Made by a program: the position numbers and the translations under genes. Positions 12,812-38,466 of a DNA stretch of 64,000 bases are shown in pieces. The stretch lies in IMG/VR virus record IMGVR_UViG_3300018414_000001. One strand, given 5' to 3'. This DNA is from an uncultured virus (IMG/VR IMGVR_UViG_3300018414_000001). Lineage: Duplodnaviria; Heunggongvirae; Uroviricota; Caudoviricetes. Position 1 is the first letter of the stretch. Every line of letters begins with the position of its first letter. The notes beneath the pieces are model-generated. The model searched no databases. It saw only the letters and a program-made list of their open reading frames with translations, and was not told where the DNA came from.

Positions 12812-13435
12812 GTTGTTCGGCATTCTCAAGAGGAATGATGATCGACTAAGCAAACCCCCGGTCATTCGCCCTGGTTCCGCTCGCCACGTCCCATCCCTGG
12901 GCAGCCATGCCAGTGCGCGGGTCTGGGCGGCGGTCATCCGAACCGTACTCCGTTCCTCGGGCACGAGAGCCCCTGACACGTCGCCTCCGATCCTGGCGGG
13001 CAGATGCAGCCATGGCACATCATCGGGCCTGGAGGGTGCGTGCAGGCGATGTGGTAGGGGATGCCCGTTAGATAATCCAGATCGCTACCGCGCACGGGAC
13101 GGCCGCAGTAACCGCAAAGCGGGGTTGTTCCAATTGCAGCGGTCATGGTCCAATCTCCTTGATTTCCATCAAAAAGCAGCCCGGTCCGAAGTCACGCAAG
13201 GAGATTGTCGTCCATCGCCGTTGACGGAAGCCAACCGGCGAGATCACCTGAAGCCGGGCGCGGTTCCCCTCCAGTATCTCGATAACCTCGAACCGTCGTC
13301 CGTCGCGGGCGCGCCATTTTGACCAGAGGGCTGGAAGCATGTTCTCGGTCATGGCATCACCCTTCCGCCGTAGCGCAGCCTGGGTGCATCATACGGGATA
13401 TACGGGGGAATTATATACATTACTCCTTGGCTCTG

Positions 13436-15340
13436 TCACGGCCCGGTTTTCGCGAACAACGGCGCATCCAGGCCAGACCACCGCTTGATCCGATGCTCGA
13501 TGTCCCGCACGTGCTGCGCCTCTTTCTCGATCAACGTGCAGACAAAGCCCGCGAGCATGCACGCCTCGCCAGTTGTGCCCGACCCGGCGAAGCAATCCAG
13601 CACATGACCGCCGGGCGGACAGGCGAGCGTGACAAGCCAACGGATCAGATCAACGGGTTTGACGGTCGGGTGTTTGCTGTCCGCCCTGTCGGCCTTGTCT
13701 GCCTTTGCAGTGTAGAAGAAGCGCGCGGCGGAACCGGTGTCGCCGAAGCCAGGATCACCAGCCGAAAACATCCCGGTCGGAACATTTTCCACGTTGCCAC
13801 CGCCCGCGTTGCCGATCCGCCCGCCAGACGATCTGCCTAAAACCGGAAACCCCGCCAGCACTTCCTCGCTTCCGTCGTGGGCCACGTTCGCGGGAAATCT
13901 CCCGAGAGTTTCAGCGCGCACCACGTTGGCGCGGACCTTGGCCGCGAACGCCTCAGATGCTTCAGGATCGTCCATCCACGGGCGTCGCCACCCTTCATTT
14001 GTGAATTTTCCGGAGGTCTCCGCCTTCTCTCCGCCACCACCAAGGCTGTCGGCGGTCGGCACTCGGCACGCATCCACATTGATCGCGCCCGTTCCCCACC
14101 GCAGCACGTTCGCCGCGACCGTGCTTTCGGACAGCGGCTTGCGCGCGACGACAATGGGTTCAAACGCAGGCTTTAGAGCAGTGCCAAGTCCGAGTGGAAC
14201 AACAGGTTTACCGCACCGACCACAAAGCGGCCATGCTCCGCCAGCTTGTGGCTCCGGTTGTCCGGCCATAGTTCCAGGTTCGTCCGGTCCTGATTGTTCA
14301 ATGGCTGATGATCGCAATGGTGGACGCACTCCGCACGGGTCAATGGACGCCCCATCCAGCGGGCCATCACCAGCCGGTGCTCCATCACGTAGCCGTCCCG
14401 TCGCGCCATGCAAATCAGGTCCGGCGGACAACGGACGTACCGGACTTGCTGATAGTTTCCCTTCCGATGGCGCAGCGTCACGCCGCCTTTCCATGCCGGG
14501 TTGCGCGCGCCCCTCATCTTTTGAATTGCGTTCCGACGCCCCTCCGGCGATACCGCCGCCGTCCCCTTGTGCCCGTGCTGCGCCCACTCCCTTCCGCGAA
14601 ATACCCCGTTGCACTGGTAGGAGCAAACCGGCGTCTTGACCCGAAGAAGATGCTTTGTGTTCCGCCAGAACGGTCGGCCGCAATTCGCACAAATCGCCTG
14701 AGACACCTTGGTTTTCATGGTCGGAAGATATATTGGATATATGGCACTGACAACGGCTTTCTGGTGATAGAGCTTTGTCAAGATTTAGACTTTTTGGGAA
14801 TCCGCTTCCGTACAAGTAGGCCACCGTGTCCCGTATCTCGAACCCGGCATCCTCGATCGCGCACACCAGTCGGTGTGAGGTCCGCGTGCCACCGAAGGCC
14901 AGCAGATAAGCGCCGGGCAACAACACGTCATAGACGGCGCGTGCCCAGGCTTCGCACCAGGTCTGATAGGTCTGCATCTGCCGGTGACGGCCGTACATCT
15001 TGTCCGGTGCAGCGCCCTTCACGCGCCAGTCAGGGCTGGCGCACGCGCACTTTTTCTTGCCCCGCGCCCGTCCGCCGCACGTCGCGCAGGTCGGATTTGC
15101 CCCGCCGAACTGGTCATTGCCGCTTGTGAACGCGGGCCATGGAGTCTCACGTTCCCCGATTCCAGGCTTGGCGAAGCCAGCGCCCGTCTGCCACGCATCC
15201 CCTTTCCACGGCGCGTCCCAATCCCGGCCCATGAACTCCAACCCGTAAGGCGGATCGCAAACGCAGGCATGAAACCGCTCGCCGGTCGCAGCGAGTTTCG
15301 GTAGTTCGACCAGGCAATCGCCGTGGAGGATGCGGATCAC
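13436..15340 (-). CDS. Beta-class N6/N4 DNA methyltransferase with a large internal insertion
   Basis: CDPPYG catalytic motif, YGSGFPKS, GTALKPAFEPI, HPTVKP and VLDCFAGSGTTG SAM-binding motif. Confidence 0.9.
   Translation of the reverse strand: MIRILHGDCLVELPKLAATGERFHACVCDPPYGLEFMGRDWDAPWKGDAWQTGAGFAKPGIGERETPWPAFTSGNDQFGGANPTCATCGGRARGKKKCACASPDWRVKGAAPDKMYGRHRQMQTYQTWCEAWARAVYDVLLPGAYLLAFGGTRTSHRLVCAIEDAGFEIRDTVAYLYGSGFPKSLNLDKALSPESRCQCHISNISSDHENQGVSGDLCELRPTVLAEHKASSSGQDAGLLLPVQRGISRKGVGAARAQGDGGGIAGGASERNSKDEGRAQPGMERRRDAAPSEGKLSASPVRPLSAGPDLHGATGRLRDGAPAGDGPLDGASIDPCGVRPPLRSSAIEQSGPDEPGTMAGQPEPQAGGAWPLCGRCGKPVVPLGLGTALKPAFEPIVVARKPLSESTVAANVLRWGTGAINVDACRVPTADSLGGGGEKAETSGKFTNEGWRRPWMDDPEASEAFAAKVRANVVRAETLGRFPANVAHDGSEEVLAGFPVLGRSSGGRIGNAGGGNVENVPTGMFSAGDPGFGDTGSAARFFYTAKADKADRADSKHPTVKPVDLIRWLVTLACPPGGHVLDCFAGSGTTGEACMLAGFVCTLIEKEAQHVRDIEHRIKRWSGLDAPLFAKTGP
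14173..14718 (-). CDS. HNH endonuclease nested in an alternative frame of the methyltransferase
   Basis: CANC..CSYQC Zn finger, NPAWKGG, DGYVMEHRLVMA..GRPL..ECVHHCDHQPLNN...NLEL. Confidence 0.85.
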   Translation of the reverse strand: MKTKVSQAICANCGRPFWRNTKHLLRVKTPVCSYQCNGVFRGREWAQHGHKGTAAVSPEGRRNAIQKMRGARNPAWKGGVTLRHRKGNYQQVRYVRCPPDLICMARRDGYVMEHRLVMARWMGRPLTRAECVHHCDHQPLNNQDRTNLELWPDNRSHKLAEHGRFVVGAVNLLFHSDLALL

Positions 15341-16467: not shown

Positions 16468-17340
16468 TTACTCCTGTTTCACCGCTTCCTGCTGCACGAT
16501 TACCTTGAGGGTGTTCAACACACGGGGGAAGTCTTTAACCTCGACATCATTGAACGATTCCGCTGAACTTCCATCGATCCGGGAAATCATGGTGCGAATG
16601 AACTTCGCCTCCGTCCGTTTTGTCTGGCCGATCAGGTCCCGAAGTTGCTGTATCTGATCGAACTCGATGAAGGTCTGACCACCACGAACGCCATCGTCAT
16701 CCACGAGGGTCTTGAACACGACGTTAAACGCCCCCGTGACCGCATAGCGTTTGAGGAATGTTTCGGTTGACCCACCGCCATGCAAAACGGTTTTGACCGC
16801 CGTTCCTTTCGGGCCAAGCGTGTCGGCGGGGGCCTCGCGCCAATACTTTTTGGAATGACGCCCGAGGGATACCTCGCACTCGACCCGGATATTTCCAGGA
16901 GTGAGCGGAGGCACCGTGTTGTAAGCCACGTTGAACCCATGGCGCAGATAGATAGGCCTGATTGCCGCATCGACCGCTTCCAGCTTGGCATACCAGCTTT
17001 TGGTCTGGCTGTTCTCAGCCGTACGCGCGACGGGTTCGATCTCCGACTGCGCCGCAGCCATGGCTTCGTTGAACCGTTCCTCGGCCTGTAGCGCCTTTTC
17101 CTGGGTCTGGAACGCCATGAGACGATCGAACATGCCCTCGTTGATACCTGGGATACGCGCGAACGCCACGGCGGCGGCGAGGGAGGGATCGGCCGCGATC
17201 AGAGCGGCCATGTCATCCTGTGCGGATGGTTGGGTCACAATGGGCGTCTCGGCCATCAAGGCTATCTCCTTGGCTGGTGGCAACAGATTATCGACGGCAT
17301 CCACTTCCCGCGGATCGGCTTCGATTGTCAGGGCGTCCAT
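16468..17340 (-). CDS. erf: ERF-family single-strand annealing protein
   Basis: FNEAMAAAQSEI, YAKLEAVD..IRPI..HGF, GSTETFLKRYA..DDDG motif. Confidence 0.85.
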   Translation of the reverse strand: MDALTIEADPREVDAVDNLLPPAKEIALMAETPIVTQPSAQDDMAALIAADPSLAAAVAFARIPGINEGMFDRLMAFQTQEKALQAEERFNEAMAAAQSEIEPVARTAENSQTKSWYAKLEAVDAAIRPIYLRHGFNVAYNTVPPLTPGNIRVECEVSLGRHSKKYWREAPADTLGPKGTAVKTVLHGGGSTETFLKRYAVTGAFNVVFKTLVDDDGVRGGQTFIEFDQIQQLRDLIGQTKRTEAKFIRTMISRIDGSSAESFNDVEVKDFPRVLNTLKVIVQQEAVKQE

Positions 17341-17678
17341 GGTTTGTTTCCTTTTGTTCGGATTTGTTCACTCTCGGCCCACAAGCGTTCGGCCAGGGCA
17401 ATAGGGTCGATTCCCTGGCGCTCCCACCAGGAAACCTCGTCTCCTGTTTTGTGAACGCCATCGCGGGCGGCAGCGTCATGGTGGCAATATCTTCCCAGAG
17501 GAACGACCCAATCATCCCCGGCGGTCACGCTACCTCCCCCTTGCGGTCCACATTTCAAGTGATGCGGATCAACATCCCATCGGTTGCCACAGACGCAGCA
17601 AGGCATCCCCTTCACCCTGTCCAGGTGCTTGCGCGATCTTATCCGGACTGGCCGGAAGTTGGTCTGGACCTCGGTCAT
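17328..17678 (-). CDS. DUF968/HNH-like Zn-finger nuclease
   Basis: RIRSRKHL..V..MPCCVCG..DPHHL..DDWVVPL..HH..H..GDE..WW. Confidence 0.7.
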   Translation of the reverse strand: MTEVQTNFRPVRIRSRKHLDRVKGMPCCVCGNRWDVDPHHLKCGPQGGGSVTAGDDWVVPLGRYCHHDAAARDGVHKTGDEVSWWERQGIDPIALAERLWAESEQIRTKGNKPWTP

Positions 17679-27732: not shown

Positions 27733-27941
27733 CCTTTAATTTCCCTTTGCTGCTTTTTTTCCGCCATCAATGCGAGAACAACTCTGGTCTGTTTGGGAAC
27801 CTTCTTCATTCCCCGATAGCGTCTCGCCTGCCTGGGGCTGATTTCAAGCAGCGCGGCAACTCTCCTGTCCATTTCCAGGACGGGGAGAGTGATCGAAATT
27901 CCATTGGCCCTCAAAAGAGTGGCATACGCCTGGTCTATCAA
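27729..27941 (-). CDS. Small HTH regulator
   Basis: RRVAALLEISPRQARRYRG..KVPKQTRVVLAL. Confidence 0.6.
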   Translation of the reverse strand: MIDQAYATLLRANGISITLPVLEMDRRVAALLEISPRQARRYRGMKKVPKQTRVVLALMAEKKQQREIKG

Positions 27942-28984
27942 TGGAACTCCGTCCCGCCCTTTCGGGTCAGATATTCTGGAGATATGTATTTCACGATGAC
28001 ACGCCCGATCCGGGGGTCTGTCCGCTCTTTTTGTGATCTCACGACGACTCCTTCTCGCATATGCGCCATATTACCGGATATGGTCGCACCTGAAGCCAGC
28101 CGCTCGACGATGCCGCCAACAAGGGGGCCGCTGTAGAGAATCGGAACCGACGGCGCGATCTCTCCGACAACCCGATTGAATTCCTCCCGGTTAAGCCACC
28201 GGCCGCGCCCCGGAGTGCCCAGGTAAATATCGAAGGCCGAGAAAGTCGGTTCTGCCTGCCCATACGACAGGTCTTGAACCGTGCCGCCGTATATCTCCCC
28301 GAAAACAGTAGCAGACCGGCCATTGAAGGCCCCTCTTAACCGGCGTCTCATTCCAAATGCTGCTTTGAGGTAAAGGTTCTCAGGATTGGGTGCCTTCAGG
28401 ACGTGTCCTGTCTCGCCCAGGCTCTTGCTGTAAACAAGGGTGTCGCCGTCCGGAAGCCGAGGGTCGTTCAAGCCGGGAAGGTAGCCTATGGCGCACATGG
28501 TCCCGTGCAGCTTTTCGGTGATCTCGACTGGCTCTCCGTTCCTGACGACATGAGGCCAGCGCCGGGCGCTTCGTATATCGTAAGCGACTGTCGAACCAGG
28601 AAGAAAGATGCACTCCCCCCTCCATGGGGTGGGGATGGGTTGTTCGTATTTGACCACCCCAAGGGAAACTGAAACATCCTCTCCCACCTTCCCGCGGGGG
28701 ATAGGGCCGATCAGAATACCCTCACTGAACGCCCCCCGGAGCCTGTAGGGCCGCACCCGATTCTTCTTCTCCCCGAATAGCTTGGCCTGCCCTTTGAGGG
28801 ACGCCGCAAGATCACCGGGTAGCACGGAGTCAGGCGGCAGGTAGATGGCGTTATCGGAATTCCCGTAACGTCCTTTGGGCACAATCACATCGATATCGAA
28901 AACCTTGGCGAGTTCAATCTCGTCGGCCCCTGGGATGGGACTAATCGACTCAATCCGAACCACGGGGCAAGAAAAATCGCTCAC
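27938..28984 (-). CDS. ATP-dependent RNA ligase, DRB0094/Rnl2-like family
   Basis: N-terminal PIPGADEIELA, motif I TEKLHGT, VFGEIYG, FDI, REGVVV, K.ISPEYL. Confidence 0.9.
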   Translation of the reverse strand: MSDFSCPVVRIESISPIPGADEIELAKVFDIDVIVPKGRYGNSDNAIYLPPDSVLPGDLAASLKGQAKLFGEKKNRVRPYRLRGAFSEGILIGPIPRGKVGEDVSVSLGVVKYEQPIPTPWRGECIFLPGSTVAYDIRSARRWPHVVRNGEPVEITEKLHGTMCAIGYLPGLNDPRLPDGDTLVYSKSLGETGHVLKAPNPENLYLKAAFGMRRRLRGAFNGRSATVFGEIYGGTVQDLSYGQAEPTFSAFDIYLGTPGRGRWLNREEFNRVVGEIAPSVPILYSGPLVGGIVERLASGATISGNMAHMREGVVVRSQKERTDPRIGRVIVKYISPEYLTRKGGTEFH

Positions 28985-29817
28985 CGTTCATTTTCCCCCT
29001 TGACTGTGCTGGCCGTTATGTCCATGTTGCGGGTGTCCAGCAGACTCCCCGCTGGACTGACAGACGGAGAACATGATGCCATGGGCAACTTTGGCTGCGA
29101 TGCAATCCTGGCAAGCGGCGCCCTCTCGGGCGCCGCAGCCATGTCAGGGGTATATTTCCTCCGCAACTCGCTAACCGTTTCATCGTAGATTTCGACCAAA
29201 CAATCAGAGCGCAGCCTCGCGGCATTGATCACCGGAGAGGCAAGCCGCATAAGAGTTTCCGCTAAAACGTACGGCGTGAACCTCAAATTCGATATTATCT
29301 TGTTCCGCAAGCGATCAGCGATGCGCTGAAAGCCAGCATCGCTGACAATTATCTCCCCCGCCGCTCGGCGCAATGACCCAAATAGAACCGGCGATAATGG
29401 TCCGCTACCGTCGCCATGAACTGCATATTGATGACGACAGGAGCCGCAGCGATAGGCTCGTCCCTCGATTACTCGGACATCGTCCGAACCACACCACCCG
29501 CAGAGCCGAACCGTAAGCGGTAGACGCCATTGGGCCAGAAGCCTAGCGCCGTCCGCTGTGTTGCATTTATGGCACGCCGCCGCGCAGGTCTCCCAACAGA
29601 CCCTGCCCCCCGCACTCGCTGGGATGACATGCTCAATCGTGCAGAGTGTATCGCCTCGCCGCCAACGGTTCATCACCACGCCGCAGTAGCAACAGCGCCA
29701 GTTTTGAGCCTCGGCAAGCCGGTCCCGCAGAAGCATGGAGGGGGCAAGGGCGGAATGGTTCTGATCAACCTCCATGAACGCATAAGCCGCCTTATGGTCC
29801 CATCGGTCGATAATCAT
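28981..29817 (-). CDS. HNH endonuclease domain protein
   Basis: EAQNWRCCYCG..TIEHVIPASAGG..AACHKCN. Confidence 0.8.
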   Translation of the reverse strand: MIIDRWDHKAAYAFMEVDQNHSALAPSMLLRDRLAEAQNWRCCYCGVVMNRWRRGDTLCTIEHVIPASAGGRVCWETCAAACHKCNTADGARLLAQWRLPLTVRLCGWCGSDDVRVIEGRAYRCGSCRHQYAVHGDGSGPLSPVLFGSLRRAAGEIIVSDAGFQRIADRLRNKIISNLRFTPYVLAETLMRLASPVINAARLRSDCLVEIYDETVSELRRKYTPDMAAAPERAPLARIASQPKLPMASCSPSVSPAGSLLDTRNMDITASTVKGENER

Positions 29818-37142: not shown

Positions 37143-37997
37143 TCAGTCATCGTTCCCCTCGAACAACCCGGCCTGACGCGCGGGGACGGGGGTGGCGCGG
37201 GGGATGAACAGATCAGCCTGACGGTAGGCGGCTTCGATGCGGCGGAGGGCGATGTCGAAGTAGGGTTCGTGGATTTCGATGCCGATTGGAACACGTCCCT
37301 GTTTGATCGCCGCGACCATGCTTGTCCCCGATCCCATAAAGGGGTCGCATACTGATTCGCCTGGGTCAGTCCATGTCGCGATGTGATCGTATGCGAGGGC
37401 GTATGGCATTGGTGCCGGATGATCGCCAGCGTCGCCCATTTCGGCGTTCGGGATAACCCACCAATTCCGCCGCAACCCCGTGGACGGCACAAGTTCGCCA
37501 TTCCGTTTGGGGACACTCTTACTGCCGTCCGCCTCACGCCGATTCCCATGAATAACCGTTCCACCCCATTTATTGCGCCAGTCCTTAATTCCGTTGAAAT
37601 GAGCAGGCGCACTCTTTGAGAAAACAAACATGTACTCAAAGGCGGGATGGTAACGGTTGGCGTCTGGGAAAGTGACACCCTCACGGCAATAGATCATCGT
37701 ATCGTGCAGCCGTAAACCACACTCAATCGCGTGCAACGCATGACGAAAACTCTCGCCTGTTTCGCTGCCGTCGATGACCTGATCCGCGACATTCCAAACG
37801 CAAACGCCGCCCGGCAACAACAAATTGGCGATATGGTTGATTACCGCGAGACAATTTACAGGTGCGTGGCCACCATAATCGCGCACATTGCCGTACGGCG
37901 GGCTCGTTACGACGCAGTTGATTGGGGCAAGCCCCGGCAGAATCTCCCTGCAATCGCCCAAATAAAGTCTGGCATCCCCGATCACTTCAACCCTCAC
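37143..37997 (-). CDS. N4/N6 DNA methyltransferase (beta class)
   Basis: LYLGDC, VTSPPY, HPAPMP, DPFMGSGT. GTG start overlaps the upstream stop. Confidence 0.9.
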   Translation of the reverse strand: MRVEVIGDARLYLGDCREILPGLAPINCVVTSPPYGNVRDYGGHAPVNCLAVINHIANLLLPGGVCVWNVADQVIDGSETGESFRHALHAIECGLRLHDTMIYCREGVTFPDANRYHPAFEYMFVFSKSAPAHFNGIKDWRNKWGGTVIHGNRREADGSKSVPKRNGELVPSTGLRRNWWVIPNAEMGDAGDHPAPMPYALAYDHIATWTDPGESVCDPFMGSGTSMVAAIKQGRVPIGIEIHEPYFDIALRRIEAAYRQADLFIPRATPVPARQAGLFEGNDD

Positions 37998-38466
37998 GCC
38001 CCACCCTCCCGCAACACCCAGTTCCCGTTCCGCGCCTTCACGAATCGATAACCGGCATACTTTTCCCGTGGCCGAATACAATAGATACAATTTGCGCCCG
38101 CCATGTCGTCAATATGATACCATCCAACACTAAGCATGGTTGCGTCATGACTCACTATGGCAGACGGCCACCGGAACCCGGCCCAGATCGTGGCGTCGGC
38201 ACGGTAGACGGAACCGTTGATCTCGATGGTTGCCGGGGTCAAGGGGAGGGTGCGGGTCATGCTCAATCCTTCAACACCAGCGCGGTCAACTCAATCTCCT
38301 TGGCCGCGATTTCCCGGTCCAGTCTGGCCAGATCGCGGGCCTGACGATTACGGTCGTGGCGCAAGTCTTCCAACATATGGAGTGCCTTCCACCACCGCGC
38401 GGCGCGTTCTGGTGGTCGCGTGTCGCGATCGGCAAGAAAAGTTCTGGCGCTAGGATGTGTCATCCC

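Follow-up and report, generated by a model that had tools for sequence, protein, structure and literature searches.

The 64,000-nucleotide stretch of DNA analyzed here, referred to as the window, probably carries a homing-type HNH endonuclease gene that lives splice-free in a permissive loop of a phage DNA methylase gene. The window is phage DNA, as seen from its exonuclease, Erf-like annealing protein, primase-helicase, and anti-repressor genes; freshwater metagenome runs contain its sequence, and the region is absent from the nearest virus record. The insert DNA is also open in the host register, with stop-creating synonymous changes purged; in the arrangement that we propose, the methylase would be translated straight through it, carrying a disordered passenger of ~175 residues. 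A CxC pair 5′ of the passenger and a W-x-x-CxxC motif 3′ of it would hold one zinc ion, closing the neck of the loop. The HNH protein would be produced from its own sigma70-type promoter within host codons, on a leaderless mRNA beginning at the ATG. The nuclease would nick or cut empty alleles near YGSGFPKS, and repair would copy the insert together with flanking codons. The same HNH lineage also moves out of frame within an intein located between YG and SGFPK, there without the clasp. The features of the region are as follows.

13436..15340, minus strand: host gene, a beta-class N6-adenine/N4-cytosine DNA methylase of 634 aa, stop-free through the insert (PF01555, E 7.5e-25)
15245..15256, minus strand: DPPY catalytic motif, residues 29-32, at least 90% conserved in 93 filled (insert-bearing) relatives
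15041..15088, minus strand: separate cysteine ribbon, CxxC-x9-CxC, within a variable loop near the N terminus of the methylase, outside the insert, in the reverse order of the clasp
14156..14809, minus strand: foreign tract, approximate, codons 178-395, with a third-position GC of 0.43-0.46 versus 0.72-0.76 in the flanks
14789..14803, minus strand: GFPKS, conserved upstream flank
14744..14752, minus strand: CQC (C197, C199), first half of the proposed clasp, 5′ of the HNH start, found in 52/52 loci at the window's insertion site (site B)
14725..14753, minus strand: predicted sigma70-type promoter of the HNH gene, TTGTCA-17-TATCTT-6-ATG (TTGTCA at 14753..14748, TATCTT at 14730..14725)
14718..14173, minus strand: HNH endonuclease gene, 181 aa, ATG start, in the +1 frame relative to the methylase (offset 622 nt)
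14611..14691, minus strand: N-terminal zinc finger of the HNH protein (C10, C13, C32, C36)
14245..14325, minus strand: HNH catalytic region, VHHCDH..NN..NL..N..H
14213..14233, minus strand: W-x-x-CGRC (W370, C373, C376), second half of the proposed clasp, over the HNH C terminus
14168..14185, minus strand: GTALKP, conserved downstream flank, containing the HNH stop
13577..13591, minus strand: FAGSG, SAM-binding motif I, residues 584-588, 3′ of the insert

An earlier note on this DNA had described an HNH gene at 14173..14718, on the same strand as the methylase and in a shifted frame. This is confirmed: the open reading frame lies in +1, matches eight PHROG HNH families (best E 1.2e-13), and has conserved catalytic residues. 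H134, H137, N142, N147, N154, and H157 are invariant in 66 aligned HNH sequences, and H134, N142, N147, N154, and H157 are kept in 55/55 site-B copies. Pfam gave no match for the window's own HNH ORF; HNH_3 matched 60 of its 66 aligned relatives, and the ORF had 360 relatives among 395 candidates. The AlphaFold model of the protein has a pLDDT of 87. Its top structural match is I-HmuI, which is a weak one (Z 4.6, rmsd 5.2, 80 aligned), and neither a Foldseek search of the model against the PDB (E <=0.001) nor a sequence profile compared with the PDB produced a significant match. Elsewhere in the window, a free-standing HNH gene (28981-29817, minus strand) lies directly 5′ of an RNA ligase gene (27938-28984, minus strand) with a 4-base overlap, and there is a further HNH-like small ORF at 17328-17678.

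For the host protein, DPPY precedes FxGxG and the modeled fold matches M.BceJIV, CcrM, and M.RsrI, as expected of a beta-class enzyme. DPPY, FxGxG, and the core are at least 90% conserved across the 93 filled proteins, which share 39-51% identity. Of 41 complete site-B alleles, 33 have both motifs within a single ORF, as do 112 of 124 empty alleles (p 0.10, pattern misses included); filled alleles may have suffered a modest loss of methylase function. The CxxC-x9-CxC ribbon recurs in locus L002, and three empty alleles (L107, L139, and L173) also carry it in their loop. A second beta-class methylase (SPPY), of another subfamily, is found uninterrupted and without the GFPKS site at 37143-38090 (minus strand) of the window. 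Also, directly behind the stop of the methylase gene, a strong promoter-like site, GTGACA-18-TATAAT (11/12; 13410-13439, minus strand) faces two small ORFs.

The HNH gene was said to lie between GFPKS and GTALKP, and both flanks were located, with the HNH stop inside the downstream one. The earlier figure of ~200 extra codons is valid only in comparison with the shortest empty alleles, because the commonest empty loop is already ~65 aa long; the distance from GFPK to LKP is 205 aa in the window versus 10-17 aa in the shortest alleles. A search for alleles by their flanks gave 160 loci (9 unparsed) and 136 distinct alleles, of which 4 have the window's element, 2 have a ShiLan-like HNH, and 130 have an HNH-free loop of 4-160 aa. 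Judged by these alleles, the insertion loop is a tolerant and hypervariable one. For this reason, comparison with insert-less homologues, as proposed in the earlier note, does not fix the junctions of the insert to the base. The tract of low third-position GC extends into both conserved flanks and thus resembles a co-conversion tract; no terminal repeats of the insert were found in the window. In two other loci (L084:983-2603 and L177:2146-3376), a ShiLan/Mantra-like HNH occupies the window's loop in frame +2 without the cysteine bracket, and therefore two HNH lineages have invaded that loop.

The HNH family set comprised the window plus 376 loci, 377 sequences in all. An HNH profile matched 223 of them; 158 of these were non-redundant, and the exclusion of 6 distant ones left 152. 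Among the 152 loci (9 of which were truncated or irregular and sorted by hand), there were 55 at site B, 3 at site C, 89 in an intein, 1 in an intein with one stop, and 4 outside a same-strand host frame. Site C lies between EIRD and WxYGxGFPK, and the same HNH with the bracket is found there in L203, L213, and L296; the ends of L213 repeat (IAWQ ... LAWQ). The 147 stop-free loci comprise 58 that are bracketed by cysteines and 89 that lie out of frame inside an intein ~20 codons upstream, with the intein insertion point between YG and SGFPK, two codons 5′ of GFPKS. The intein-borne HNH is in the +1 frame (L008:1562-2593, L013, L015, L029, and 85 more loci). These sister inteins have both canonical ends in 74/89 cases, a profile match to the AceL NrdHF-1-1 intein (E 5e-9), and, in a minority, weak Pfam Hint matches. 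The window itself was described as lacking an intein signature, and we likewise found no Hint match and no intein ends (N-terminal Cys/Ser, C-terminal Asn before Ser/Thr/Cys) in it. Two unusual loci deserve mention. In L214 (minus strand, one metagenome contig), an antisense HNH at site C splits the methylase into two ORFs, the first ending just past CHC and the second beginning just before CPCC. In L376:125-2291, a distant +1-frame HNH sits in an SPPY-type methylase of another subfamily, between a CxC-type motif and CxxC, just before motif I. Named genomes with copies (prophages or binned contigs) belong to Pseudomonadota, Myxococcota, Actinomycetota, Deinococcota, Bacteroidota, and others.

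A stop appears in the host frame wherever an HNH codon ending in T is followed by a codon starting with AA, AG, or GA. Such a T is used at 0/25 positions in the window (4.7 expected), 0/1687 in the 55 loci at site B (371 expected, given the usage of each individual locus), and 0/2666 in the intein loci (872 expected), compared with 28/127 (39 expected) in the 4 loci outside a same-strand host frame. As the locus classes were defined on stop-free loci, the fair, non-circular count is that of all 152 close non-redundant HNH loci, 147 of which have no stop in the host frame; the third frame has ~8 stops. These counts point to selection that removes each synonymous HNH change creating a host-frame stop. 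Over 1485 pairs, mean pairwise identity is 54.8% for the HNH frame versus 33.5% for the host frame and 34.2% for the third frame. Together with the invariant catalytic residues, this bears out the purifying selection on the HNH frame that the earlier note's reading entails. By these comparisons, the nuclease is conserved, whereas the passenger, taken as a whole, is unconserved, and selection acts on both frames of the insert.

The bracket formed by RCQC and CGRC in the methylase frame was present as described, with CQC at 14752..14744 and CGRC at 14224..14213. The four cysteines (C197, C199, C373, and C376) are invariant in 93/93 aligned proteins, which are the full-length choices among 120 listed, and apart from them and one tryptophan the passenger is unconserved in the host frame. 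At the synonymous HNH positions under the host-frame W, C, and C, T is fixed in 51, 50, and 50 of 58 loci, respectively (background, ~0.22), and no column in the 89 intein-borne copies has a fixed T at a synonymous position. Both Cys codons (TGT and TGC) are in use, at 65/47 and 43/69, the overlying HNH residues vary, and several copies have the CxxC in another register of the HNH. Because T is fixed at synonymous bases while HNH residues vary and registers differ, the 3′ cysteine pair is not a by-product of the overlapping HNH coding. The CxxC occurs in 56/57 splice-free copies versus 3/89 intein-borne copies; a CxC after GFPK was found in 0/79 intein exteins, and the CxC...CxxC pair was found in 0/130 HNH-free alleles. 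In the AlphaFold model of the methylase, pLDDT reaches 84 and 88 at the cysteine pairs and is mostly <50 between them, suggesting that the passenger is disordered. CxC plus CxxC(G) is a usual zinc knuckle pair, and we think it likely that the selected CxC and W-x-x-CxxC residues bind one zinc ion and so close the loop neck. Co-folding of two 32-residue junction pieces with zinc gave a score of 0.19 (mark, 0.32), which speaks neither for nor against the clasp. When the 5′ clasp was sought around other passengers by a DNA pattern scan, 2 of the 118 matches listed were real in-frame cases, both with the window's HNH type. A quick tree suggested that the clasp arose several times independently, but an AU test on 53 of 154 rows, with the clasp columns removed, did not reject one common origin (p 0.343); the intein-to-clasp direction is likewise unrooted.

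With respect to expression of the nuclease, the TTGTCA box of the predicted promoter falls inside the R-C-Q codons of the methylase. The earlier note mentioned neither this promoter nor the intein-borne sister form. Two promoter-like sites, this one included, were found in 2.3 kb versus 0.3 in shuffles, and no Shine-Dalgarno sequence for the HNH gene was seen in the window. The HNH mRNA is predicted to be leaderless, starting at the ATG at 14718. Across sites B and C, TANNNT precedes 19/178 candidate starts by 5-7 nt (17 at exactly 6) versus 4/732 controls (p 6e-11). By locus, the signature is present in 15/53 at site B, 3/3 at site C, and 31/86 in inteins. A -35 box with at least 4/6 matches accompanies it in 3 of the 15 signature-bearing site-B loci, and several intein loci have a perfect TTGACA. 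Intein-borne loci often carry a perfect sigma70 promoter inside the N-terminal splicing block. Loci without the TANNNT signature must use other signals. Given the signature, a sigma70-type promoter of its own, written in host codons, is the likely source of the nuclease.

Rfam identified no intron in the window, and RNA folding of the insert is not stronger than that of shuffled sequences (z 0.45). Reads were checked in 4 of 13 listed runs, all as contigs. In one RNA run, none of the contigs crosses a junction. RNA run X12 has a 151-nt contig identical to 14587-14736, past the predicted start site, which may be DNA. In DNA run X6, a near-identical contig (14823-15135) diverges by 25 letters just before the foreign tract, and a low-similarity alignment that skips 683 nt most probably derives from an empty allele in another phage. 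We give these read matches no weight as evidence. The splice-free reading, according to which the insert would not be spliced from the RNA, is supported because the HNH is under purifying selection, the host frame is open, and the methylase motifs are kept. Further support comes from host-frame selection on the cysteines, from their specificity for splice-free copies, and from the islands of AlphaFold confidence that flank the disordered passenger.

We compared the distribution of the insert on a methylase tree built from conserved blocks with FastTree (160 parsed rows: 95 empty, 33 intein, 30 site B, and 2 site C) with that on the HNH tree. The site-B label changes 24 times for 30 rows on the methylase tree (28.0 when shuffled), with at least 8 changes forced by well-supported branches, and 7 times for 55 rows on the HNH tree (45 when shuffled). 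The sister of the window methylase is an empty allele (support 95, 70% identity). By this analysis, the filled alleles have a scattered distribution on the methylase tree, and within-gene recombination or repeated loss could contribute to the scatter. Homing by cleavage of empty alleles is a likely cause of this pattern. The target is placed at YGSGFPKS because the sister HNHs sit in an intein there, and the cut would presumably fall near that motif or the GFPKS flank. YGSGFPKS, the presumed target, is uninterrupted in site-B alleles, and no fixed recoding of it that would give immunity was found in these alleles.

It is possible that the HNH is not homing at all, but has been domesticated or is carried passively, for example as a nuclease directed against co-infecting phages, and that the patchiness reflects recombination between methylase halves and repeated loss. 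The intact presumed target in site-B alleles would fit this explanation, as would the age and divergence of these HNHs (55% identity), which are unlike the near-identical ShiLan copies, and the frequent within-gene recombination in the methylase family described in the accessible part of PMC9957025. However, 148/152 close relatives cluster within ~35 codons of a single conserved motif in a single gene, all on the same strand and 89 inside an intein; the catalytic residues are invariant, and the low-GC3 tract reaches into both conserved flanks; we therefore consider a non-homing passenger unlikely. The cysteines, for their part, might be metal-free, forming disulfides or serving some protein-level excision of the passenger, since conservation alone does not name the chemistry and the sister form is an intein. 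The usual pairing of such motifs as zinc knuckles, the CxxC-x9-CxC ribbons in other loops of the methylase family, the reducing cytoplasm, and the absence of a Hint fold or terminal Asn leave a metal-free role only a slender chance.

Two further alternatives concern the open host frame. If the passenger-bearing methylase were inactive, the sole benefit of an open frame could be the avoidance of polarity or the coupling of translation to downstream genes. The gene is dispensable in mycobacteriophages (PMC11855218), and both motifs share one ORF in 80% of filled versus 90% of empty alleles, which is not a significant difference. This explanation is nonetheless very unlikely, as DPPY, FxGxG, and the core stay conserved in the 93 filled proteins and selection on five host-frame junction residues needs a folded protein that matters. 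Alternatively, the insert might leave the RNA as an unrecognized self-splicing intron or be skipped by ribosome bypass, in which case the open frame would be incidental. Unusual phage introns are known (PMC11855218, citing BAKA), but the window gave no Rfam match and no folding signal, and the non-coding room is only 55-60 nt between GFPKS and the promoter, with none at the 3′ end. Moreover, the host frame of an insert lost from the RNA would be free to accumulate stops, but it contains none, and we regard this alternative as extremely improbable.

Returning to the splice-free homing element as the preferred reading, the usual view has been that homing endonucleases inside genes need an intron or intein, or else break the gene. 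We suggest tentatively, and at somewhat less than even chance, that the bracket is a portable, non-covalent substitute for splicing, that is, a zinc staple owned by the element. One HNH lineage could thus use the same target whether or not an intein is present, enter different permissive loops (site B, site C, and L376), and even join separately translated halves (L214), and the element would encode, in host or intein codons, a leaderless promoter of its own. Two questions remained after the ShiLan paper (PMC11855218): what allows the host protein to tolerate the insert, and by what route the nuclease is produced. The window lineage offers concrete, testable answers to both, namely, four cysteines and a start site at one base, and comes with a natural control in the same nuclease inside an intein, without the cysteines. 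The lineage is common in environmental phages; because gene calling yields just one of the two frames, such hidden elements are undercounted. Protein engineering could also make use of a zinc staple able to tolerate a 175-residue passenger.

Several known systems resemble parts of this arrangement. I-HmuI is intron-encoded. The window HNH is of the I-HmuI type by HNH_3 matches in its relatives and by the weak structural match, and differs in its N-terminal four-cysteine finger and its overlap with coding DNA. Inteins with non-canonical endonucleases have been surveyed (bioRxiv 10.1101/2025.01.02.630785), and our 89 loci with the HNH lineage out of frame inside a methylase intein are of the same kind. 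As far as the accessible part of that survey goes, its architectures, in four other host genes, include HNH in frame, LAGLIDADG and VSR in antisense, and endonuclease VII in frame 3, but no +1 HNH in a methylase intein, and the window copy has no intein. In the split nrdA of phage Aeh1, judging from the accessible portion of PMC3045599, sequence added with the endonuclease mobE gives protein ends for enzyme assembly without RNA splicing; fractured genes with split inteins are a related likeness (PMC2677866, seen in part). L214 resembles that split-host arrangement. The difference is that the Aeh1 host gene is broken into two ORFs, whereas the window's host protein is one chain whose added ends are cysteine pairs. 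A literature search covering few subscription journals found no host-frame cysteine clasp, no internal promoter for a hidden HNH, and no +1 HNH in a methylase intein.

The closest known counterpart is the ShiLan domain of mycobacteriophage methylases, which inserts 202 stop-free codons with an HNH hidden in the third frame, lacks an intein or intron, and is predicted to loop out (PMC11855218; related sources are PMC9957025 and, for Applejack gp54/55, PMC12613952). Read-through was proposed there from ten phages, in a 2025 paper that contains no experiments and raises the question of how the HNH is translated (PMC11855218). Host-frame cysteines and an internal promoter are not reported in PMC11855218, and the accessible part of PMC9957025 does not mention zinc, cysteine, or promoter. 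The window HNH matches Mantra gp64, a ShiLan phage protein. The two elements share the host methylase family (Mantra gp64 has YGSGFPKS and GWGTALKP), ~200 in-frame stop-free codons, a hidden same-strand HNH with a zinc finger, the lack of a detected intein or intron, and a patchy distribution; scatter over the host-gene tree is the same pattern that was used for the ShiLan domain. Mantra gp64 (L034:922-3246) and L177 also have an in-frame endonuclease-like stretch near the N terminus, whose position fits the lone LAGLIDADG insertion of PMC11855218. The ShiLan insert lies after GTALKP with a duplicated flank and in frame +2, whereas that of the window lies before GTALKP, in +1, without a terminal repeat. 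In addition, the Mantra insert has no CxC...CxxC bracket, and the ShiLan domain is known from near-identical copies in ten phages, compared with 58 diverged loci plus 89 in inteins for the window lineage. Beyond ShiLan, the window lineage adds the clasp with its intein control, a second site, a split allele, and a start site by prediction; these are well supported as sequence patterns, and their biochemical roles are proposed. Taken together, the lifestyle is a known, ShiLan-type one, and the window element, because of its other site, its other frame, and an HNH identity of 31% to Mantra over 139 columns, is separate from the ShiLan domain proper.
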